Shown here piece by piece: positions 1 to 39,239 of a stretch of DNA of 64,000 nucleotides (position 1 is the first letter of the stretch; each line of letters opens with the position of its first letter). The stretch lies in assembly GCF_024502345.1 (NCBI RefSeq), contig NZ_JALDNN010000001.1; one strand, 5' to 3'. The DNA is from Escherichia coli (GTDB lineage: Bacteria > Pseudomonadota > Gammaproteobacteria > Enterobacterales > Enterobacteriaceae). A program made the translations under genes and the position numbers. The notes under the pieces are model-generated. The model did no database searches. It worked only from the letters and a program-made list of their open reading frames with translations, and was not told the DNA's origin.

Positions 1-62
1 CTCAGCCTGATGTTTTTCAATAAAGACATACTTCATTTCAGGCGCTTCGCGAAGTATGTCGC
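1..62 (-). mobile_element. IS3 element, internal segment (3' end of orfA onward); continues past the window edge; split by IS30
   Basis: Reverse complement of 1-62 continues the IS3 OrfA frame (..TYFAKRLK*) that is broken at 1284; GC dinucleotide at 61-62 is repeated at 1284-1285. Confidence 0.7.
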
Positions 63-1283
63 TGTAGATTCAATTGGTCAACGCAACAGTTATGTGAAAA
101 CATGGGGTTGCGGAGGTTTTTTGAATGAGACGAACATTTACAGCAGAGGAAAAAGCCTCTGTTTTTGAACTATGGAAGAACGGAACAGGCTTCAGTGAAA
201 TAGCGAATATCCTGGGTTCAAAACCCGGAACGATCTTCACTATGTTAAGGGATACTGGCGGCATAAAACCCCATGAGCGTAAGCGGGCTGTAGCTCACCT
301 GACACTGTCTGAGCGCGAGGAGATACGAGCTGGTTTGTCAGCCAAAATGAGCATTCGTGCGATAGCTACTGCGCTGAATCGCAGTCCTTCGACGATCTCA
401 CGTGAAGTTCAGCGTAATCGGGGCAGACGCTATTACAAAGCTGTTGATGCTAATAACCGAGCCAACAGAATGGCGAAAAGGCCAAAACCGTGCTTACTGG
501 ATCAAAATTTACCATTGCGAAAGCTTGTTCTGGAAAAGCTGGAGATGAAATGGTCTCCAGAGCAAATATCAGGATGGTTAAGGCGAACAAAACCACGTCA
601 AAAAACGCTGCGAATATCACCTGAGACAATTTATAAAACGCTGTACTTTCGTAGCCGTGAAGCGCTACACCACCTGAATATACAGCATCTGCGACGGTCG
701 CATAGCCTTCGCCATGGCAGGCGTCATACCCGCAAAGGCGAAAGAGGTACGATTAACATAGTGAACGGAACACCAATTCACGAACGTTCCCGAAATATCG
801 ATAACAGACGCTCTCTGGGGCATTGGGAGGGCGATTTAGTCTCAGGTACAAAAAACTCTCATATAGCCACACTTGTAGACCGAAAATCACGTTATACGAT
901 CATCCTTAGACTCAGGGGCAAAGATTCTGTCTCAGTAAATCAGGCTCTTACCGACAAATTCCTGAGTTTACCGTCAGAACTCAGAAAATCACTGACATGG
1001 GACAGAGGAATGGAACTGGCCAGACATCTAGAATTTACTGTCAGCACCGGCGTTAAAGTTTACTTCTGCGATCCTCAGAGTCCTTGGCAGCGGGGAACAA
1101 ATGAGAACACAAATGGGCTAATTCGGCAGTACTTTCCTAAAAAGACATGTCTTGCCCAATATACTCAACATGAACTAGATCTGGTTGCTGCTCAGCTAAA
1201 CAACAGACCGAGAAAGACACTGAAGTTCAAAACACCGAAAGAGATAATTGAAAGGGGTGTTGCATTGACAGATTGAATCTACA
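63..1283 (+). mobile_element. IS30, complete 1221-bp copy
   Basis: Starts TGTAGATTCAATTGGTCAACGC, ends GATTGAATCTACA (terminal inverted repeats); length 1221 bp; single 383-aa transposase ORF; flanked by 2-bp GC direct repeat. Confidence 0.9.
125..1276 (+). CDS. insI: IS30 transposase
   Basis: 383-aa ORF with N-terminal HTH and DDE transposase; matches IS30 InsI as I recall it. Confidence 0.93.
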   Translation: MRRTFTAEEKASVFELWKNGTGFSEIANILGSKPGTIFTMLRDTGGIKPHERKRAVAHLTLSEREEIRAGLSAKMSIRAIATALNRSPSTISREVQRNRGRRYYKAVDANNRANRMAKRPKPCLLDQNLPLRKLVLEKLEMKWSPEQISGWLRRTKPRQKTLRISPETIYKTLYFRSREALHHLNIQHLRRSHSLRHGRRHTRKGERGTINIVNGTPIHERSRNIDNRRSLGHWEGDLVSGTKNSHIATLVDRKSRYTIILRLRGKDSVSVNQALTDKFLSLPSELRKSLTWDRGMELARHLEFTVSTGVKVYFCDPQSPWQRGTNENTNGLIRQYFPKKTCLAQYTQHELDLVAAQLNNRPRKTLKFKTPKEIIERGVALTD

Positions 1284-1555
1284 GCGGCCTTTTGGAGGAT
1301 AGCCAGCTCTTCATCCCGTTCTGCCAGCTGGCGTTTGAGACGTGCAATCTCGGTAGACATCTCCAGTTCACGTTCAGAAGACGTCTGCTGATTTTGCTGT
1401 TTACTGCGCCAGTTGTAGAGCTGTGATTCATACAGGCTGAGTTCACGGGCTGCGGCAGTAACACCGATGCGTTCAGCAAGCTTCAGGGCTTCACTGCGAA
1501 ATTCAGGCGAATGCTGTTTACGGGGTTTTTTACTGGTTGATACTGTTTTTGTCAT
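1284..1555 (-). pseudogene. insE: IS3 OrfA (InsE-type), first ~91 codons; reading frame interrupted by IS30
   Basis: ATG at 1555; frame runs MTKTV..AILQKAA, then enters IS30 at 1283; the remaining codons resume at 62..1. Confidence 0.65.
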
Positions 1556-1620
1556 GTGAGTCACCTCTGACTGAGAGTTTACTCACTTAGCCGCGTGTCC
1601 ACTATTGCTGGGTAAGATCA
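1284..1620 (-). mobile_element. IS3 left-end segment (terminal repeat plus 5' part of orfA)
   Basis: Reverse complement of 1601-1620 is TGATCTTACCCAGCAATAG.., the IS3 terminus as I recall it; OrfA begins MTKTVSTSKKPRKQHSPEFRSEALKLAERIG. Confidence 0.75.
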
Positions 1621-2231
1621 TAGATGCTACGGATATCCATATCCAGAACTTCAGCAATCTGATATGGATTATAACCAGAAACCATATACCCCATTATGGT
1701 GAATTCCATCTGAGTTAATGTGTTACCTCTGGTAAATGATAAATAACGACCAATAAATAGTTGTCTGATCTTTTCATTGGCAACATCAAGACCATCATCA
1801 TTATATATGACAGCAGATATTGCTGAGTTGTGTTTTCGCCAGTAATTAGCTAACGATTGCATATTGCGGTCGCTGACTAAAACAATCCCCATGTCAGTAC
1901 TTGCAAGATAGTCAATCCAGTCTTTTTCAAGGAATAGACGTAAAAAACTTACTGAAAAATCGACAAAAATATATCCGCTTAATCTCGCATTGTGGTTTTT
2001 AGTTAAGATACCTTCTACCACACCACGATTAAAATATGAACTTTCTTCGGGCCACATACAAAAACACGAGTTTGCGCAGTACTGCAAACGCGGTGACTCT
2101 TCTGGCATTATTTGGCAATGCATTGAGCAACTATTGCATGTAAGACTTTTATAACGACTACAAAGCCCCATGTTAAGAACCTCCCTATCCGTATATAATT
2201 GCATAATTTCATTGGTGATTGATGATGTCAA
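1602..2231 (-). CDS. yqeH: LuxR-family (GerE-type HTH) transcriptional regulator, YqeH-like; last codons supplied by the IS3 terminus
   Basis: 209-aa ORF; C-terminal LuxR-type HTH (..GNTLTQMEFTIMGYMVSGYNPYQIAEVLDMDIRSIY); sits next to the yqeG remnant as in K-12; stop codon lies inside the IS3 end. Confidence 0.6.
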   Translation of the reverse strand: MTSSITNEIMQLYTDREVLNMGLCSRYKSLTCNSCSMHCQIMPEESPRLQYCANSCFCMWPEESSYFNRGVVEGILTKNHNARLSGYIFVDFSVSFLRLFLEKDWIDYLASTDMGIVLVSDRNMQSLANYWRKHNSAISAVIYNDDGLDVANEKIRQLFIGRYLSFTRGNTLTQMEFTIMGYMVSGYNPYQIAEVLDMDIRSIYDLTQQ

Positions 2232-2585
2232 TACACCATGATTTTGTAATTTTGCTGGGAAAAATTGCGATTAATCTGTATTTGCTATAATTCTGATTAA
2301 GACATTTTAAAATGCATTTCTCGTTATTAAATATGATTATGTTTCACTGATTTAATCTTACCTGGTTGAGGGTGGTTCAGATAACTATCTCATGGTATGA
2401 GAATATCTATATCGCAAATTGTTTTTGAATGACCAGAAGATATCTTGCGAATCTAAGTTATGCATCTTAAATGGTCTTATTTAAGATGTTCAGATCTCTT
2501 TGTGTGTTTAACTAACTGATAATACTAGGATATGATGAGAGAAGTGATAGGGCGGAATAATAACGAATGAACATTATGAAAACTG

Positions 2586-2620
2586 GAATGGTTCAAAATT
2601 GTAGCAATTTTGAACCATTC
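2586..2620 (-). terminator. Probable terminator hairpin downstream of the yqeG remnant
   Basis: Perfect 15-bp inverted repeat GAATGGTTCAAAATT / AATTTTGAACCATTC with 5-nt loop, directly after the yqeG stop, followed on the minus strand by a U-rich tract. Confidence 0.4.
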
Positions 2621-2630
2621 ACAATGGATA

Positions 2631-2865
2631 TCAGCTAAAGAACATTACCGATACGCACAGGATACCCACGATCAGCGTAATCAGATTTCCGATGGAACGC
2701 CAGGGTTTAAGCGCCGGGATCAGATACGTTGACAACGTAGGCATGATGAAAAGTATCATGGCAATGAGCGGGCCGCTGATCGCGTAAATCATCGAAATCG
2801 CGTTCGGGTTAATGCAACAAACAATGAAGGTGATCAGCGATACCAACATAATTGATAGTGCGCGG
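2631..2865 (-). pseudogene. yqeG: yqeG remnant: C-terminal ~77 codons of an HAAAP-family (SdaC/TdcC-like) transporter, truncated by IS903
   Basis: Frame ..GPLIAMILFIMPTLSTYLIPALKPWRSIGNLITLIVGILCVSVMFFS* aligns with the C-terminus of SdaC in this same window (..[51 protein letters not shown]); upstream part of the frame is IS903 sequence. Confidence 0.65.
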
Positions 2866-3922
2866 GGCTTTGTTGAATAAATCGAACTTTTGCTGAGTTG
2901 AAGGATCAGATCACGTATCTTCCCGACAACGCAGACCGTTCCGTGGCAAAGCAAAAGTTCAAAATCACCAACTGGCCCACCTACAATAAAGCCCTCATCA
3001 ACCGTGGCTCCATAACTTTCTGGCTGGATGATGAAGCTATTCAGGCCTGGTATGAGTCAGCAACACCTTCTTCACGAGGCAGACCTCAGCGCTATTCTGA
3101 CCTTGCCATCACGACTGTGCTGGTCATTAAACGCGTATTCAGGCTGACCCTGCGCGCTGCGCAGGGCTTTATTGATTCCATTTTTTCTCTGATGAACGTT
3201 CCGCTACGCTGCCCGGATTACAGCTGTGTCAGCAGGCGGGCAAAGTCGGTTAATGTCAGTTTCAAAACGCCCACCCGGGGTGAAATCGCACACCTGGTAA
3301 TTGATTCCACCGGGCTGAAGGTCTTCGGTGAAGGCGAGTGGAAAGTCAAAAAGCATGGCCAGGAACGCCGCCGTATCTGGCGTAAGCTGCATCTCGCCGT
3401 TGACAGTAAAACACATGAAATCATCTGCGCTGACCTGTCGCTGAACAACGTTACGGACTCAGAGGCCTTCCCCGGGTTAATCCGGCAAACCCACCGGAAA
3501 ATCAGGTCAGCCGCCGCCGATGGCGCTTACGATACCCGGCTATGTCACGATGAACTGCGGCGTAAGAAAATCAGCGCGCTTATCCCTCCCCGAAAAGGTG
3601 CGGGTTACTGGCCCGGTGAATATGCAGACCGTAACCGTGCAGTGGCTAATCAGCGAATGACCGGGAGTAATGCGCGGTGGAAATGGACAACAGATTACAA
3701 CCGTCGCTCGATAGCGGAAACGGCGATGTACCGGGTAAAACAGCTGTTCGGGGGTTCACTGACACTGCGTGACTACGATGGTCAGGTTGCAGAGGCTATG
3801 GCCCTGGTACGAGCGCTGAACAAAATGACGAAAGCAGGTATGCCTGAAAGCGTGCGTATTGCCTGAAAACACAACCCGCTACGGGGGAGACTTACCCGAA
3901 ATCTGATTTATTCAACAAAGCC
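2866..3922 (+). mobile_element. IS903-group (IS5 family) element, complete 1057 bp, no target-site duplication
   Basis: Left end GGCTTTGTTGAATAAATCG at 2866, inverse copy ending at 3922; exactly 1057 bp; flanks agtgcgcgg / cattcttct do not match, whereas IS903 normally makes a 9-bp duplication. Confidence 0.85.
2943..3866 (+). CDS. IS903-type DDE transposase (307 aa from a GTG start)
   Basis: ORF ..GLKVFGEGEWKVKKHGQERRRIWRKLHLAVD..DGAYDTR..SIAETAMYRVK; the track ORF begins at TTG 2898, but GTG 2943 gives 307 aa, which I recall as the IS903 transposase length. Confidence 0.8.
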   Translation: MAKQKFKITNWPTYNKALINRGSITFWLDDEAIQAWYESATPSSRGRPQRYSDLAITTVLVIKRVFRLTLRAAQGFIDSIFSLMNVPLRCPDYSCVSRRAKSVNVSFKTPTRGEIAHLVIDSTGLKVFGEGEWKVKKHGQERRRIWRKLHLAVDSKTHEIICADLSLNNVTDSEAFPGLIRQTHRKIRSAAADGAYDTRLCHDELRRKKISALIPPRKGAGYWPGEYADRNRAVANQRMTGSNARWKWTTDYNRRSIAETAMYRVKQLFGGSLTLRDYDGQVAEAMALVRALNKMTKAGMPESVRIA

Positions 3923-3940
3923 CATTCTTCTTACTTTTAT

Positions 3941-3966
3941 GACCCTGCCGCATGGCAGGGTTTTTT
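3941..3966 (+). terminator. Intrinsic terminator; probably the 3' terminator of the deleted upstream gene (kduD in K-12)
   Basis: GC stem CCCTGCC / GGCAGGG with 4-nt loop followed by TTTTTT, 20 bp after the IS903 end. Confidence 0.45.
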
Positions 3967-4135
3967 ATATCTGTAGATCATCATAATCCATATCATGGTT
4001 ATGAAATAATCCATATCAATTATCAATTAATGAACTTTATGAATTTTATCTGCTGTAAAATTAGGTGATTAATAATAATATCAATAATTCAACTTAATTT
4101 GAAAATTGGAATATCCATCACATAACGACATGTCG

Positions 4136-4170
4136 TAGCAATTTAATCCATATTTATGCTGTTTCCGACC
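4136..4170 (+). promoter_or_regulatory. araE promoter region with AraC half-site pair
   Basis: TAGCAATTTAATCCATA followed by TTTATGCTGTTTCCGAC resembles the AraC TAGCn7TCCATA motif, about 70 bp upstream of the araE start. Confidence 0.45.
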
Positions 4171-4234
4171 TGACACCTGTGTGAGTTGTTCACGTATTTT
4201 TTCACTATGTCTTACTCTCTGCTGGCAGGAAAAA

Positions 4235-5653
4235 ATGGTTACTATCAATACGGAATCTGCTTTAACGCCACGTTCTTTGCGGGATACGCGGCGTATGAAT
4301 ATGTTTGTTTCGGTAGCTGCTGCGGTCGCAGGATTGTTATTTGGTCTTGATATCGGCGTAATCGCCGGAGCGTTGCCGTTCATTACCGATCACTTTGTGC
4401 TGACCAGTCGTTTGCAGGAATGGGTGGTTAGTAGCATGATGCTCGGTGCAGCAATTGGTGCGCTGTTTAATGGTTGGCTGTCGTTCCGCCTGGGGCGTAA
4501 ATACAGCCTGATGGCGGGGGCCATCCTGTTTGTACTCGGTTCTATAGGGTCCGCTTTTGCGACCAGCGTAGAGATGTTAATCGCCGCTCGTGTGGTGCTG
4601 GGCATTGCTGTCGGGATCGCGTCTTACACCGCTCCTCTGTATCTTTCTGAAATGGCAAGTGAAAACGTTCGCGGTAAGATGATCAGTATGTACCAGTTGA
4701 TGGTCACACTCGGCATCGTGCTGGCGTTTTTATCCGATACAGCGTTCAGTTATAGCGGTAACTGGCGCGCAATGTTGGGGGTTCTTGCTTTACCAGCAGT
4801 TCTGCTGATTATTCTGGTGGTCTTCCTGCCAAATAGCCCGCGCTGGCTGGCGGAAAAGGGGCGTCATATTGAGGCGGAAGAAGTATTGCGTATGCTGCGC
4901 GATACGTCGGAAAAAGCGCGAGAAGAACTCAACGAAATTCGTGAAAGCCTGAAGTTAAAACAGGGCGGTTGGGCACTGTTTAAGATCAACCGTAACGTCC
5001 GTCGTGCTGTGTTTCTCGGTATGTTGTTGCAGGCGATGCAGCAGTTTACCGGTATGAACATCATCATGTACTACGCGCCGCGTATCTTCAAAATGGCGGG
5101 CTTTACGACCACAGAACAACAGATGATTGCGACTCTGGTCGTAGGGCTGACCTTTATGTTCGCCACCTTTATTGCGGTGTTTACGGTAGATAAAGCAGGG
5201 CGTAAACCGGCTCTGAAAATTGGTTTCAGCGTGATGGCGTTAGGCACTCTGGTGCTGGGCTATTGCCTGATGCAGTTTGATAACGGTACGGCTTCCAGTG
5301 GCTTGTCCTGGCTCTCTGTTGGCATGACGATGATGTGTATTGCCGGTTATGCGATGAGCGCCGCGCCAGTGGTGTGGATCCTGTGCTCTGAAATTCAGCC
5401 GCTGAAATGCCGCGATTTCGGTATTACCTGTTCGACCACCACGAACTGGGTGTCGAATATGATTATCGGCGCGACCTTCCTGACGCTGCTCGACAGCATT
5501 GGCGCTGCCGGTACGTTCTGGCTCTACACTGCGCTGAACATTGCGTTTGTGGGCATCACTTTCTGGCTCATTCCGGAAACCAAAAATGTCACGCTGGAAC
5601 ATATCGAACGCAAACTGATGGCAGGCGAGAAGTTGAGAAATATCGGCATCTGA
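4235..5653 (+). CDS. araE: Arabinose:H+ symporter (MFS sugar porter)
   Basis: 472 aa from ATG 4235 ([15 protein letters not shown]..); the track ORF starts earlier at GTG 4181. Confidence 0.93.
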
Positions 5654-5659
5654 TTTCAC

Positions 5660-5692
5660 GGGCCGGATGTGCTGTACATCCGGCCCTTTTTT
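5660..5692 (+). terminator. araE rho-independent terminator
   Basis: GGGCCGGATGT / ACATCCGGCCC hairpin followed by TTTTTT. Confidence 0.7.
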
Positions 5693-5781
5693 CGTTAATA
5701 GAGATCGGGCACTTGGCCGTTGAGGCGTTTGTCTCGTTCCTTATTCAGCCTTGTTGCGGTAACACACATCAGGAGAGAGGA

Positions 5782-6474
5782 ATGAAAACAATTGGTTTGC
5801 TGGGAGGAATGAGCTGGGAATCCACCATTCCTTACTATCGTTTGATAAATGAAGGCATTAAACAGCGGCTTGGTGGGCTTCACTCTGCGCAAGTGCTGCT
5901 ACATAGCGTCGATTTTCATGAAATAGAAGAGTGCCAGCGTCGCGGGGAATGGGATAAAACCGGGGACATTCTGGCTGAGGCGGCGCTTGGCTTACAGCGG
6001 GCGGGCGCAGAAGGTATTGTGTTATGTACCAATACGATGCATAAAGTGGCGGATGCCATTGAGTCACGTTGCACTCTGCCTTTCTTACACATTGCGGATG
6101 CCACCGGACGTGCAATTACCGGGGCCGGAATGACTCGTGTGGCGCTGCTGGGTACGCGTTACACCATGGAACAGGATTTTTATCGCGGGCGGCTGACGGA
6201 ACAATTTTCCATCAATTGTCTTATTCCTGAAGCGGATGAACGGGCGAAGATTAATCAGATTATTTTTGAAGAACTGTGTCTGGGGCAATTCACCGAAGCG
6301 TCACGCACTTATTATGCGCAAGTGATTGCTCGCCTGGCAGAACAGGGGGCGCAGGGTGTCATTTTTGGCTGCACAGAGATTGGTTTACTGGTGCCAGAAG
6401 AGCGCAGTGTTCTGCCTGTGTTTGATACTGCGGCGATCCATGCCGAGGATGCTGTCGCTTTTATGCTGTCGTAG
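5782..6474 (+). CDS. ygeA: Amino-acid racemase of the Asp/Glu racemase family
   Basis: 230 aa from ATG 5782 behind a GGAGAGAGG RBS; the track ORF 5407-6474 carries a spurious N-terminal extension overlapping araE. Confidence 0.85.
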
Positions 6475-7396
6475 CTGACGACAGAATAGCGTCAAGAGAA
6501 GTGACCAGTTTCGGTAATCCCGCTTGTAAATGCTCACTAAACGCCTGCACCAGCGCTGATGACGGGCGATGCAGAGGGCGGATCAGGCTGACGGTAAACG
6601 GAACCGCAATACTGAACCGCCGCACCACTAAACCGCTTGCCGCATAATCCAGTGCGGTGAGCGGGTTAACCACCGAAACACCTACCCCCGTCCGTACCAT
6701 TGCGCACACTGACGCGGCGCTGTGGGTTTCTACGATCATGCGTCGTTTAACCTGATGTTCAGTAAATAGCTGATCCAGCAACTGGCGATAGCTGTCAGTA
6801 CGGGAAAGGCTGATGTAGTTCTCACCCTGAAAATCATCCGGCGTTAATACCTTTTTTACCGCCAGCGGATGACCCGGAGGTAACACACACACTTCATCTA
6901 AAGAGAGTAATTCAGTACGTTCTGTTCCCGCAGGCGTATGGAGTGTCTCAGTGAGTCCTAAATCATGACGCTGTGCCGAGAGCCACTCTTCAAGTAGCGG
7001 TGATTCCTGGGGCACAATATTTAAGCTGACATCGGGATAACGTGCCAGAAAGGGTTGCAGGAGCTGCGGTAAAAAAGATTGCGAAAAGACCGGCAGGCAG
7101 GCAATAGACAGTTCTCCCTGGCGAAACTCGCGCAGACTTTCTGCGGCGCTGACAATGCGATCCAGTCCGTACCAGGATCGTTGCACTTCTTCAAACAGAC
7201 GCAGTCCTTGCACGGTAGGATGTAATCGTCCACGTACGCGCTCAAACAATTTCAGCCCGATCACCTTCTCAAAGCGCGCCAGTTCGCGGCTGACGGTTGG
7301 CTGTGAGGTGTGTAGCAGGTGTGCTGCCTCAGTCAGGCTTCCGGCGGTCATTACCGCATGAAAAATTTCAATATGACGTAAGTTAACGGCGGCCAT
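6461..7396 (-). CDS. lysR: LysR transcriptional activator of lysA
   Basis: 311 aa LTTR with N-terminal HTH; divergent from lysA. Confidence 0.93.
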
Positions 7397-7517
7397 TAGC
7401 GCTCTCTCGCAATCCGGTAATCCATATCATTTTTGCATAGACTCGACATAAATCGATATTTTTTATTCTTTTTATGATGTGGCGTAATCATAAAAAAGCA
7501 CTCATCTGGAGTTTGTT

Positions 7518-8780
7518 ATGCCACATTCACTGTTCAGCACCGATACCGATCTCACCGCCGAAAATCTGCTGCGTTTGCCCGCTGAATTTGGCTGCCCGGT
7601 GTGGGTCTACGATGCGCAAATTATTCGTCGGCAGATTGCAGCGCTGAAACAGTTTGATGTGGTGCGCTTTGCACAGAAAGCCTGTTCCAATATTCATATT
7701 TTGCGATTAATGCGTGAGCAGGGCGTGAAAGTGGATTCCGTCTCGTTAGGCGAAATAGAGCGTGCGTTGGCGGCGGGTTACAATCCGCAAACGCACCCCG
7801 ATGATATTGTTTTTACGGCAGATGTTATCGATCAGGCGACGCTTGAACGCGTCAGTGAATTGCAAATTCCGGTGAATGCGGGTTCTGTTGATATGCTCGA
7901 CCAACTGGGCCAGGTTTCGCCAGGGCATCGGGTATGGCTGCGCGTTAACCCGGGGTTTGGTCACGGACATAGCCAAAAAACCAATACCGGTGGCGAAAAC
8001 AGCAAGCACGGTATCTGGTACACCGATCTGCCCGCCGCACTGGACGTGATACAACGTCATCATCTGCAGCTGGTCGGCATTCACATGCACATTGGTTCTG
8101 GCGTTGATTATGCCCATCTGGAACAGGTGTGTGGTGCTATGGTACGTCAGGTCATCGAATTCGGTCAGGATTTACAGGCTATTTCTGCAGGCGGTGGGCT
8201 TTCTATTCCTTATCAACAGGGTGAAGAGGCGGTTGATACCGAGCATTATTATGGTCTGTGGAATGCCGCGCGTCAGCAAATCGCCCGCCATTTGGGCCAC
8301 CCTGTGAAACTGGAAATTGAACCGGGTCGCTTTCTGGTAGCGCAGTCTGGCGTGTTAATTACTCAGGTGCGGAGCGTCAAACAAATGGGTAGCCGCCACT
8401 TTGTGCTGGTTGATGCCGGGTTCAACGATCTGATGCGCCCGGCAATGTACGGTAGTTACCACCATATCAGTGCCCTGGCAGCTGATGGTCGTTCTCTGGA
8501 ACACGCGCCAACGGTGGAAACCGTCGTCGCCGGGCCATTATGTGAATCGGGCGATGTCTTTACCCAGCAGGAAGGGGGAAATGTTGAAACCCGCGCCTTG
8601 CCGGAAGTGAAGGCGGGTGATTATCTGGTACTGCATGATACAGGGGCATATGGCGCATCAATGTCATCCAACTACAACAGCCGTCCGCTGTTACCAGAAG
8701 TTCTGTTTGATAATGGTCAGGCGCGGTTGATTCGCCGTCGCCAGACCATCGAAGAATTACTGGCGCTGGAATTGCTTTAA
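7518..8780 (+). CDS. lysA: Diaminopimelate decarboxylase
   Basis: 420 aa; PLP-dependent fold-III decarboxylase. Confidence 0.95.
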   Translation: MPHSLFSTDTDLTAENLLRLPAEFGCPVWVYDAQIIRRQIAALKQFDVVRFAQKACSNIHILRLMREQGVKVDSVSLGEIERALAAGYNPQTHPDDIVFTADVIDQATLERVSELQIPVNAGSVDMLDQLGQVSPGHRVWLRVNPGFGHGHSQKTNTGGENSKHGIWYTDLPAALDVIQRHHLQLVGIHMHIGSGVDYAHLEQVCGAMVRQVIEFGQDLQAISAGGGLSIPYQQGEEAVDTEHYYGLWNAARQQIARHLGHPVKLEIEPGRFLVAQSGVLITQVRSVKQMGSRHFVLVDAGFNDLMRPAMYGSYHHISALAADGRSLEHAPTVETVVAGPLCESGDVFTQQEGGNVETRALPEVKAGDYLVLHDTGAYGASMSSNYNSRPLLPEVLFDNGQARLIRRRQTIEELLALELL

Positions 8781-8786
8781 CTGCGG

Positions 8787-9818
8787 TTAGTCGCTGGTTG
8801 CATGATGACTGGCCTCCAGCGACGGAGTTGACACTGAATGGCGACGTACCAGCGTCGGACTAAAGACATTAGTGATTTCCGGGAGAGGGCGATTATCCGC
8901 CAGCGCCAAAGCCAGTTCGGCAGCCTGGGTCGCCATCGTCACGATTGGGTAACGCACGGTGGTCAGGCGCGGGCGCACATAGCGTGACACCAGCACATCA
9001 TCAAAGCCAATTAACGAAATTTCGCCCGGTACATCAATACCATTATCATTGAGAACGCCCATCGCACCCGCCGCCATTGAATCGTTATAACAGGCTACCG
9101 CAGTGAAATTTCTTCCTCGTCCCAAAAGCTCGGTCATTGCCTGTTCGCCGCCGCTTTCGTCTGGTTCGCCAAATGTCACCAGCCGATCATTGGCCGGAAT
9201 ACCACTTTCAGCAAGGGCATCGTAATACCCTTGCAGACGATCTTCGGCGTCAGAAATAGAGTGGTTAGAGCACAGATAACCAATGCGGGTATGACCTTGC
9301 TGAATTAAATGACGCGTTGCCAGCCAGGCACCGTAACGATCGTCAAGAGCAATACAACGGTTTTCAAAGCCAGGCAGGATACGGTTGATCAGCACCATAC
9401 CGGGCATTTGTTTCATTAATGAGGCTAAATCGGCATCCGGGATCATTTTGGCATGGACGACCAACGCAGCACAGCGATGGCGGATCAGTTGCTCAATAGC
9501 CTGACGCTCTTTTTGTTCGTTGTGGTAACCGTTGCCAATCAATAAGAAATTACCGGTGTGATAAGCCACCTGTTCGACCGCTTTCACCATTGCACCGAAA
9601 AACGGATCGGAAACATCACCAACGACCAGACCGACCGTTTCAGTGGTCTGCTGCGCCAGCGCACGGGCGTTGGCGTTCGGGTGATAGCTAAGAGACTCCA
9701 TTGCACTATGCACAGCCAGCCGGGACGCTTCGCTGGCTTTGGGTGAATTATTAATGACGCGGGAAACGGTGGCGACTGAAACGCCTGCCAGTCGGGCTAC
9801 ATCCTTTATGGTCGCCAT
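8787..9818 (-). CDS. galR: Galactose repressor (LacI family)
   Basis: 343 aa, MATIKDVARLAGVSVATVSRVIN.. HTH. Confidence 0.95.
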   Translation of the reverse strand: MATIKDVARLAGVSVATVSRVINNSPKASEASRLAVHSAMESLSYHPNANARALAQQTTETVGLVVGDVSDPFFGAMVKAVEQVAYHTGNFLLIGNGYHNEQKERQAIEQLIRHRCAALVVHAKMIPDADLASLMKQMPGMVLINRILPGFENRCIALDDRYGAWLATRHLIQQGHTRIGYLCSNHSISDAEDRLQGYYDALAESGIPANDRLVTFGEPDESGGEQAMTELLGRGRNFTAVACYNDSMAAGAMGVLNDNGIDVPGEISLIGFDDVLVSRYVRPRLTTVRYPIVTMATQAAELALALADNRPLPEITNVFSPTLVRRHSVSTPSLEASHHATSD

Positions 9819-38689: not shown

Positions 38690-38735
38690 ATAGGAGACCA
38701 GAAACAAAAAAACACCCGTTAGGGTGTTCAATAAT

Positions 38736-38812
<77 letters not shown>

Positions 38813-38844
38813 TCACCGTACTGCTTTATTTCATTAAATTTGAT

Positions 38845-38921
<77 letters not shown>

Positions 38922-38954
38922 TCACCGTACTGCTTTACTTCATCAAATTTTAAT

Positions 38955-39031
<77 letters not shown>

Positions 39032-39239
39032 TCCGTGGATGCGCACTATACTCCGCTCGCGTTTTCATGCAACCTTTTTTTTACCCCGATCACGGATTTA
39101 GCATGATTTTGAACAAAAACAAACCACTAAAGCCTATTTTTTGTGCAAAATTTGCGTCAGGGAGAGGCTGCTCATTTCATTAAACGCGGCGGTTTGTTAT
39201 CTTCGTTGCGCCTTATTTTTTAACCTGAAGAAGAGAACA

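Follow-up and report, generated by a model that had tools for sequence, protein, structure and literature searches.

Probable pseudogenization of yqeH by IS3 at the left edge of a decayed ETT2 island in Escherichia coli

The yqeH locus of this E. coli contig raises the question of whether a LuxR-type regulatory gene that runs into an IS3 end still encodes a working regulator, and of what the AT-rich DNA upstream of it represents. In the window, which is the whole 64-kb stretch of DNA analyzed, yqeH, the gene with which the ETT2 type III secretion island begins, is very probably a pseudogene, with IS3 abutting codon 184. The features of the locus are collected in Table 1.

Table 1. Features of the yqeH locus, with coordinates in the window; L001, L003 and L004 are annotated E. 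coli records used for comparison.
Feature	Coordinates	Strand	Basis
IS3 continuation, approximately positions 336-397 of the element, past IS30	1-62	minus	100% match to L001 7346-7407
IS30, 1221 bp, within IS3	63-1283	plus	terminal sequences; flanking IS3 matches overlap by 2 bp
Left end of IS3, positions 1-337 of the element	1284-1620	minus	100% identity to annotated IS3 in L001, L003 and L004
yqeH' probable pseudogene ORF, 189 codons and stop	1602-2171	minus	protein comparison, junction alignment
Surviving left 836 bp of ETT2: 5' part of yqeH and 285 bp upstream	1621-2456	minus	comparison with an ETT2-less strain, GC content
Probable yqeH promoter and leader	2172-2231	minus	consensus scan, 10/12 matches
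Perfect 10-bp inverted repeat, CATCTTAAAT-N6-ATTTAAGATG	2463-2472 / 2479-2488		in core DNA, island edge 6 bp away
Likely intrinsic terminator of yqeG	2586-2620	minus	fold, shuffles, covariation
yqeG 3' remnant (amino-acid permease), last 77 codons and stop	2631-2865	minus	match to L001 5766-6000
IS903-like element, IS5 family, 1057 bp	2866-3922	plus	match boundaries, terminal repeats

An open reading frame is present in the minus strand between 1602 and 2231. Alignment with intact and truncated alleles placed the last base homologous to intact yqeH at 1621, and in nearly all of the intact-yqeH matches listed, megablast coverage did not go beyond query base 1010 (1621 in the window). The left inverted repeat of IS3 (TGATCTTACCCAGCAATAGTGGACAC) lies at 1620-1595, and where the window is aligned to intact and truncated alleles, its junction reads ...AGCATCTA followed directly by TGATCTTACCC; therefore, YqeH' stops where IS3 starts, and the earlier note was right that its helix-turn-helix (HTH) ends there. 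Native codons 1-184 correspond to 2171-1620, with the third base of codon 184 provided by IS3 (TAC to TAT, Tyr unchanged), and the IS3 inverted repeat encodes the last five codons and the stop (DLTQQ and TAG, 1619-1602). The product has 189 amino acid residues, 184 native and DLTQQ, and is identical to WP_001389254.1 (REL606 and USMARC-49610). In its intact form, as in K-12, YqeH is 210 residues long, and the window copy lacks residues 185-210. The 26 residues by which K-12 YqeH (L005) and other intact alleles extend beyond the break are AYKQRIEKRMGGKINELFIRSHSVQH, which disposes of the alternative that the K-12 protein ends at the same residue without an IS.

The reading frame reported earlier as a 209-residue protein is real, but that length is an artefact of starting at the first TTG after a stop. 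This TTG, at 2231, constitutes the first three bases of a predicted -35 hexamer, TTGACA (2231-2226), which is followed by a 17-nt spacer and a -10 hexamer, AATTAT (2208-2203), with an upstream TG. The annotated start is the ATG at 2171, with a Shine-Dalgarno sequence (GGGAGG, 2185-2180) 8 nt upstream. The predicted promoter is conserved in K-12, O157 and O128, and the segment from the -35 hexamer to the ATG is the probable promoter and leader of yqeH.

In the LuxR/GerE domain, the HTH is made of helices 2 and 3, the latter being the recognition helix, and helix 4 has a packing or dimerizing role. The AF2 model of intact YqeH, which is moderate overall (mean pLDDT 62.9, alignment of 14 sequences), shows C-terminal helices at residues 154-164, 169-175, 180-194 (pLDDT 87-91) and 197-205. 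Since the native sequence ends at residue 184, 10 of the 15 recognition-helix residues, including the family-invariant AYKQRIEK, and the whole of helix 4 are removed by the cut; YAYKQRIEK (residues 184-192) does not vary among 14 homologues with identities as low as 49%. With the AF2 helices as a guide, the window product lacks the four-helix LuxR-type bundle. The proposal that the final helix is shortened thus holds in that the HTH is cut, but it is the third helix that is cut, while the fourth is gone entirely. Alignment to the GerE/LuxR HTH profile (Pfam PF00196, 57 positions), which had been suggested as a check, confirmed the truncation: the window product gave 14.1 bits over profile positions 2-28 and intact YqeH 22.6 bits over positions 2-45, so that the gathering score of 23.5 bits is missed by the former and just missed by the latter.

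As even intact YqeH lies below the GerE threshold, its family assignment consists of several weak lines in agreement. A YqeH profile search aligned residues 147-202 to the DNA-binding domain of EvgA and also reached FixJ and ComA, and the best Foldseek matches of the AF2 model were DesR, VpsT, RcsB, EvgA and FixJ; a search of PDB with the intact YqeH sequence itself gave no match at E <= 0.01. The best NCBIfam match of intact YqeH was EcpR (NF047921), with 74.4 bits over residues 31-202, and the truncated product scored 62.6 bits. The equivalog cut-off of this model, 300 bits, is reached by neither, and a score so far under it (74 vs 300 bits) makes YqeH a paralogue rather than EcpR itself. 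Pfam EcpR_N (PF27348; a precomputed annotation, the model not being reported by the local Pfam copy) matches the exact 189-aa product as well as the intact homologues, and this domain is retained in full. YqeH is, with high probability, an EcpR/MatA-like regulator with a LuxR-type HTH. EcpR/MatA, a regulator of the LuxR family that controls the mat/ecp fimbrial operon and represses flhDC, shares EcpR_N, and YqeH matches nearly the whole profile; however, YqeH carries an extra Cys-rich N-terminal segment of about 30 residues, and the window copy, unlike EcpR/MatA, has no complete HTH. The Cys cluster of this segment (C12-x2-C15-x3-C19 ... C32-x3-C36) is conserved and uncharacterized; the wider curiosity of the locus is limited to it, and it is a property of the intact YqeH family.

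Residues 1-184 of intact YqeH (K-12 b2846-type and APEC40) are 99-100% identical to those of the window copy and the promoter region is the same, but in the intact proteins neither the recognition helix nor helix 4 is incomplete. YqeH of avian pathogenic E. coli affects motility, biofilm formation and virulence (PMC9014576), and control of motility has been linked to MatA (bioRxiv 10.64898/2025.12.14.694247) as well as to YqeH (PMC9014576). The yqeH' product would retain the N-terminal EcpR_N, helices 1 and 2 of the DNA-binding domain and five of the 15 recognition-helix residues, to which IS3 would add five more. Such a protein should not bind DNA specifically and is best regarded as a non-functional transcription factor; the doubt previously expressed about the function of the regulator was correct and can be put more strongly, given the cut recognition helix and the loss of helix 4.

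It is extremely improbable that the truncated protein still works as a DNA-binding regulator, with a last helix that is only slightly short. Its reading frame is open and preceded by a Shine-Dalgarno sequence and a good promoter-like site, nothing is missing from the N-terminal domain or from HTH helices 1 and 2, and the allele is widespread; however, the cut after residue 5 of the 15 in the recognition helix, the loss of the invariant AYKQRIEK and of the fourth helix, and the fall of the GerE match to 14.1 bits with only positions 2-28 aligned all argue against DNA binding. Furthermore, the neighboring ETT2 genes are gone in the junction-sharing genomes, and PGAP labels the product a 'hypothetical protein' or, in strain LR-25, a frameshifted pseudogene. 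A DNA-independent activity, by which truncated YqeH would titrate or heterodimerize with EcpR/MatA or RcsB as a dominant-negative protein or anti-activator, is also very improbable. The complete EcpR_N, the Cys motif C12/C15/C19/C32/C36 conserved across homologues, the similarity of the paralogue EcpR over residues 31-202 and the very common occurrence of the exact 189-aa product are in its favor; against these, the sequence identity of the carriers is what recent common descent would give, the carrier LR-25 already has a further frameshift, and the locus is probably H-NS-silenced, judging from K-12. As a narrower form of this activity, the yqeH' frame, which thousands of assemblies contain, might give a modulator that acts independently of DNA, with the intact EcpR_N and the Cys cluster sensing metal or redox state, and that interferes with EcpR/MatA. 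We consider this very improbable; if it were true, the motility-adhesion switch of B-type and C-type E. coli could be affected. The annotation we regard as correct is an IS3-truncated yqeH pseudogene, and neither a 209-aa regulator nor a 'hypothetical protein'.

The identical IS3/yqeH junction, over 100 bases, was found in 199 of 5,426 complete E. coli genomes, among them those of REL606 and BL21(DE3) (E. coli B) and of strain C, and the exact 189-aa protein is recorded in 10,794 collection blocks. Such a wide spread of the product is expected from clonal descent, and an activity retained by the N-terminal domain is still compatible with it. In E. coli B (REL606, BL21(DE3)) and C, yqeH' shows the same junction and the same 189-aa product beside IS3 and ygeQ', and the AT-rich upstream spacer of USMARC-49610 is 100% identical to that of the window. 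As about 200 other complete genomes share this allele with E. coli B and BL21, it is an ordinary one. An IS3-truncated yqeH in a decayed ETT2 is already known, and beyond annotation the truncated gene matters little; its junction with IS3 can be used as a lineage marker.

The IS3 of L001 is 1258 bp long and annotated with a programmed frameshift; the window parts are 100% identical to it, the TGATC... terminal repeat, orfA/orfB and the frameshift being the marks of an IS3 member, and the left end in the window holds the start of an insE-type orfA (MTKTVSTSKKPRK...). The window starts inside IS3, with positions 1-397 of the element visible and its far end and far flank off-window; for this reason, the ETT2 deletion of the source genome is deduced from the junction-sharing genomes. 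In the annotated records L001 and L004, the far flank is a ygeQ fragment adjoining tRNA-Gly (glyU), in L003 it consists of unnamed ORFs followed by tRNA-Gly, and further junction-carrying contigs show the same short gap to actS. The IS3 of L001 is flanked by CTA and GAA, without a 3-bp target duplication, which fits an IS-associated deletion, and 26.06 kb are missing relative to O157. Since IS3 lies beside ygeQ' in every related genome examined, it stands at the site of an IS-associated deletion that took about 26 kb, almost all of ETT2, and this island has almost certainly been lost in the genome of the window too, like in E. coli B and C.

It is highly unlikely that IS3 is instead a simple insertion in the source genome, with the yqeH 3' end and ETT2 continuing beyond the window start. 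The far side of IS3 lies outside the window, and the combination of IS30 in IS3 and an IS903-like element in yqeG is matched by no complete genome of the collection, so the history of the source genome is partly its own. However, the junction is base for base the one coupled to ygeQ'-glyU or to the actS gap in every carrier inspected, the IS3 of L001 has no target duplication, an independent insertion at the identical base is unlikely, and the yqeH 3' end is found nowhere else within the 64-kb window. An IS-associated loss of ETT2 also agrees with the passages on this island in Ren et al. 2004 (via PMC3032704) and in a review (PMC11068852), which describe it as a low-GC island at glyU, widely degraded by deletions, frameshifts and IS, and of which all laboratory strains keep only remnants. 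With respect to this published attrition, only the extra IS30 and IS903-like events of the window differ.

The carriers of the E. coli B/C type have an uninterrupted IS3 and retain yqeG, yqeF and kduI, and USMARC-49610 and LR-25 also kduD; in the window, by contrast, IS3 is split by IS30, and kduD-kduI-yqeF and the 5' part of yqeG are deleted. The IS30 has its transposase ORF at 125-1276 and a target duplication, GC, at 61-62 and 1284-1285, and its junction with IS3 recurs in the annotation of many E. coli records. On the other side, homology to yqeG extends as far as 2865, where it is cut by the second element, which we take to be IS903-like, as annotated in matching records. This element has 18-bp terminal inverted repeats (GGCTTTGTTGAATAAATC) and a transposase ORF at 2898-3866; a 9-bp target duplication is absent around it (AGTGCGCGG vs CATTCTTCT), and it meets the araE side 2 bp past the kduD stop. 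The deletion at this element amounts to 4347 bp, comprising kduD-kduI-yqeF and the 5' three quarters of yqeG. The ORF at 4181-5653 was considered as a possible galP, with an inversion suspected, but BLAST against L001 identified it as araE in its normal place, and the rearrangement is therefore a plain 4.3-kb deletion. The yqeG/IS903-like junction as a single piece had no match among complete E. coli genomes or GTDB representative genomes, look-ups of the fused or truncated yqeG' ORF returned nothing or unrelated frameshift alleles, and the best complete genome matches the window backbone with no more than 99.6% identity. In this genome, decay has gone further, by the entry of IS30 into IS3 and by an IS903-like element that removed kduD, kduI, yqeF and most of yqeG; a 1245-bp stub (1621-2865) remains stranded, with an insertion sequence on either side. 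The stub is a tidy case of stepwise IS-driven decay beside a probably silenced island, by IS3, then IS30 inside it, and an IS903-like element opposite.

The region upstream of the ORF is AT-rich, as first noticed: the spacer between yqeH' and yqeG (2172-2630, 459 bp) has 30.9% GC and yqeH' 37.4%, vs 51.1% for the window, and the lowest-GC 500-bp bins of the whole 64 kb fall in this spacer. These 459 bp are the ordinary yqeG-yqeH spacer. Comparison with the ETT2-less strain AR13438, in which the sequence at about 2457 is joined directly to the glyU side, placed the island edge at about 2457/2456, and 1621-2456, with 37% GC in its coding part and about 30% upstream, is the left end of ETT2, a low-GC block between yqeG and glyU that is missing in some strains; in O157, ETT2 has 27.5 kb and 35.8% GC vs 51% in its flank. 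The spacer comprises core DNA with the likely yqeG terminator hairpin and a 10-bp repeat, the ETT2 edge, and the probable promoter and ribosome-binding site of yqeH. The description of the region as horizontally acquired DNA at an ETT2 remnant is therefore borne out for 1621-2456, the left edge of the island, but not for its two inverted repeats, both of which lie in core DNA; inverted repeats in themselves are not evidence of horizontal transfer.

Both the spacer and yqeH' have the AT-richness of H-NS-silenced DNA. A K-12 yqeG-ygeI fragment has been used as chromosomal-hairpin (CHIN) forming DNA with purified H-NS (PMC12460168), a yqeH/yqeI promoter island is associated with H-NS (PMC3661553), and H-NS at the K-12 version of the locus is also covered by a review (PMC11068852). 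By its composition, the spacer is a likely H-NS target, as in K-12; H-NS may bind the stub in this strain, and the yqeH' locus is probably silenced by it. With up to 2 mismatches allowed, the high-affinity motif published for H-NS (TCGATAAATT) is not found in 1621-2630, against 1.4 matches per kb in the window as a whole, so that the case for H-NS in this DNA is one of composition. A search of window positions 1-4300 against Rfam (E <= 1) gave three sub-threshold chance matches, with no known sRNA or cis-element in the spacer.

The shorter of the two inverted repeats is present and perfect, its coordinates being 2463-2488, one base off those given before (2464-2489). A perfect inverted repeat of at least 10 bp (loop of 3-20) occurred in 48 of 2000 dinucleotide-preserving shuffles (2.4%). 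Its arms are invariant in ETT2-positive strains, and one arm is mutated in the ETT2-less strain. It was considered as a mark of the integration site; however, no clear direct repeat is common to the junctions at either end of the island, and its position near the edge is therefore left as an unexplained coincidence. The longer repeat, previously described as a 15-bp stem, is indeed perfect, but the stem has 16 bp (2586-2601 / 2605-2620) and belongs to core DNA rather than to the island. The hairpin has a 3-nt loop and five G-C pairs, begins 10 nt past the yqeG stop codon (UGA, 2633-2631) and is followed by the tail CAGUUUUCAU. A 16-bp stem was reached in none of 2000 shuffles, and the RNA fold has -24.6 kcal/mol (z = -6.3). 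A stable stem-loop near a stop codon and a U-tract, though a short one, are the features of a Rho-independent terminator, and the hairpin probably serves yqeG, a core gene, as its terminator. The ETT2-less strain has conserved it, and its outer pair covaries between A-U, G-U and G-C across strains.

Nearly 4,000 complete E. coli genomes have a yqeG-yqeH region to which the DNA of the open frame on the minus strand is 97.5-100% identical and, among the matches listed, the match ended at query base 1010, equivalent to window base 1621, in nearly all records with an intact yqeH. When two truncated alleles and the intact one of the O128 strain 90-9281 were aligned with the window, the break fell between ...AGC ATC TA and TGATCTTACCCAGCAATAGTGGACAC. 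The IS3 left inverted repeat lies to the right of the break, therefore IS3 supplies the DLTQQ encoded by the final five codons as well as the TAG stop (1604-1602). The IS3 sequence of the window matches the 1258-bp IS3 annotated in strain USMARC-49610 with 100% identity. The protein thus stops where IS3 begins, as the earlier note had proposed, although the length of 209 aa given there was counted from a TTG, the first to follow a stop codon. This TTG, at 2231, constitutes the first three bases of the TTGACA -35 box of a predicted promoter, in which 17 nt separate this box from an AATTAT -10 box extended by TG (10/12 consensus matches). In every annotated genome yqeH starts at ATG 2171, with GGGAGG 8 nt upstream, and the product has 189 aa: 184 native residues and five IS-encoded. 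It is identical to RefSeq WP_001389254.1, named "hypothetical protein". Intact alleles, that of K-12 among them, encode 210 aa and run on as ...SIY-AYKQRIEKRMGGKINELFIRSHSVQH; an ending of the K-12 protein at the same residue, which the earlier note had considered, was checked and does not occur.

Features of the window at the yqeH/IS3 junction and its surroundings
Feature	Window position	Length	Remarks
IS3	1-62 and 1284-1620		Interrupted by IS30 at position 336/337
IS30	63-1283	1221 bp	Inside IS3; 2-bp duplication GC
IS3 left inverted repeat	1620-1595
Open frame, minus strand	1602-2231
Stub (yqeH', upstream spacer and yqeG remnant)	1621-2865	1245 bp	Remains between two insertion sequences
Cys cluster	2171-2055		yqeH codons 1-38
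Spacer, island DNA	2172-2456		AR13438 comparison
Spacer, core DNA	2457-2630		AR13438 comparison
10-bp perfect inverted repeat	2463-2488
Long hairpin	2586-2601 / 2605-2620		Perfect 16-bp stem, 3-nt loop
IS903-like element	2866-3922	1057 bp	Cuts yqeG
Tandem repeat	38732-39033		109-bp unit, 2.8 copies, 97% identity

Profile alignment to Pfam GerE, the LuxR-type HTH DNA-binding domain (57 positions, cut-off 23.5 bits), covered positions 2-45 in intact YqeH (22.6 bits) and only 2-28 in the window product (14.1 bits). In a profile built from 14 homologues, the DNA-binding domains of EvgA, FixJ and ComA align to YqeH residues 147-202. The AlphaFold2 model of intact YqeH (mean pLDDT 62.9, and 87-91 over residues 171-190) has the domain's four helices at residues 154-164, 169-175, 180-194 and 197-205, and its best Foldseek matches were the NarL/FixJ-type regulators DesR, VpsT, RcsB, EvgA and FixJ. 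The break after residue 184 leaves the third (recognition) helix with five of its 15 residues and removes the fourth entirely; the lost stretch includes AYKQRIEK, and homologues with as little as 49% identity show no variation at residues 184-192. The domain is truncated, as the earlier note had noticed, but with these losses the damage is much greater than the shortened final helix it described. Given how LuxR/GerE domains are known to be built, specific DNA binding would be expected to be lost in the window product.

The best curated match of YqeH was EcpR (MatA), with 74.4 bits over residues 31-202; YqeH is a paralogue of this regulator, because the score is far under the equivalog cut-off of 300 bits. 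MatA/EcpR is described as a member of the LuxR family that switches on the mat/ecp fimbrial operon and acts as a repressor of flhDC (bioRxiv 10.64898/2025.12.14.694247), and deletion of the intact yqeH of an avian pathogenic strain reduced its motility, biofilm formation and virulence (PMC9014576). Intact and truncated YqeH proteins both carry the Pfam domain EcpR_N (PF27348) as a precomputed hit. An alignment of YqeH homologues also shows an N-terminal Cys cluster conserved across the family (C12-x2-C15-x3-C19 ... C32-x3-C36-x-C38) and still present in homologues of only 49-58% identity; C12, C15 and C19 precede the start of the EcpR profile match, and residues 1-41 were modeled with low confidence (pLDDT <50). 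The cluster may be a metal or redox site, and we know of no previous description of it. That the retained EcpR_N domain and the Cys cluster keep a residual DNA-independent activity is very improbable. In strain LR-25, PGAP marks the truncated-allele stub (5460-6028 of its record, 99.4% identity to the window) as additionally frameshifted, which suggests continuing decay, not maintenance.

The identical 100-base junction was found in 199 of the 5,426 complete E. coli genomes, including REL606, BL21(DE3) and its derivatives, and strain C, and the assembly collection has records of the exact 189-aa product in 10,794 blocks. Beyond IS3, the annotated carriers USMARC-49610 and REL606 show a ygeQ fragment with tRNA-Gly and actS after it, LR-25 shows unnamed ORFs and then tRNA-Gly, and further carrier contigs have an equally short gap to actS. 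In comparison with O157, 26.06 kb are absent between the two IS3 breakpoints. No 3-bp target duplication was found at the IS3 flanks of USMARC-49610, since they differ (CTA and GAA). This IS3-bounded loss is familiar attrition of ETT2, the type III secretion island located between yqeG and tRNA-Gly (glyU), of which yqeH is the first gene; PMC3032704, citing Ren et al. 2004, states that laboratory strains all retain ETT2 only as remnants. As the window begins inside IS3, we infer the deletion in its own genome from the shared junction, and the missing 3' end of yqeH was found nowhere else in the 64 kb. yqeH' is a pseudogene made by the IS3-bounded ETT2 deletion and a well-known kind of object, the very same allele being carried by E. 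coli B, C and many others. The observation of the earlier note was real and its interpretation essentially right.

The region upstream is AT-rich, as had been noted: the GC content is 30.9% in 2172-2630, 37.4% in the native part of yqeH and 51.1% in the whole window, whose lowest-GC bins fall in yqeH' and its upstream region. These 459 bp are the ordinary yqeG-yqeH spacer, conserved across E. coli. In the ETT2-less strain AR13438, the glyU side comes 174 shared bases after yqeG, which places the left edge of ETT2 (27.5 kb and 35.8% GC in O157) at about 2457/2456 and divides the spacer into a core and an island part. H-NS silencing, also proposed in the earlier note, is a reasonable but indirect reading in view of published results on the K-12 locus: a yqeH/yqeI promoter island is listed as H-NS associated (PMC3661553), and a yqeG-ygeI fragment, chosen as DNA "known to form CHINs (chromosomal hairpins) in vivo", assembled CHIN structures with purified H-NS (PMC12460168). 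A motif scan of the stub gave no near match to the published high-affinity H-NS motif.

Both inverted repeats of the spacer are perfect, but the longer stem, reported as 15 bp, has 16 bp, and the shorter repeat lies one base away from the reported 2464-2489. The long hairpin begins 10 nt past the yqeG stop and is followed by CAGUUUUCAU; its predicted fold has -24.6 kcal/mol (z = -6.3), its stem was matched in none of 2000 shuffles, and its outer pair is A-U, G-U or G-C depending on the strain. Located in core DNA, it is most simply read as the yqeG terminator rather than as a sign of foreign DNA. The 10-bp repeat is less unusual (matched or exceeded in 2.4% of shuffles) and lies on the core side, 6 bp from the island edge. 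The two ETT2 junctions were compared without finding a direct repeat, so that a link to island integration is unsupported and the inverted repeat stands as an unexplained short palindrome. One of its arms is mutated in an ETT2-less strain.

At the yqeG end of the stub, the last 77 codons of yqeG abut one end of the IS903-like element, and at its other end the araE side resumes 2 bp beyond the kduD stop; therefore 4347 bp are missing, made up of kduD, kduI, yqeF and the first 995 bp of yqeG. No 9-bp target duplication is present at its flanks. Its junction with yqeG was absent from the 5,426 complete E. coli genomes and the GTDB representative genomes, and the exact arrangement of the window was found in none of either set. 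Many unrelated chromosomes and plasmids of E. coli have the identical IS30/IS3 junction, which suggests that IS3 contains a hot spot for IS30 or that an IS3::IS30 composite is spreading. Far from the stub, the consensus of the tandem repeat at 38732-39033 reads as the reverse complement of a tRNA gene; it looks like an ordinary tandem tRNA gene cluster, which we take to be metZWV.
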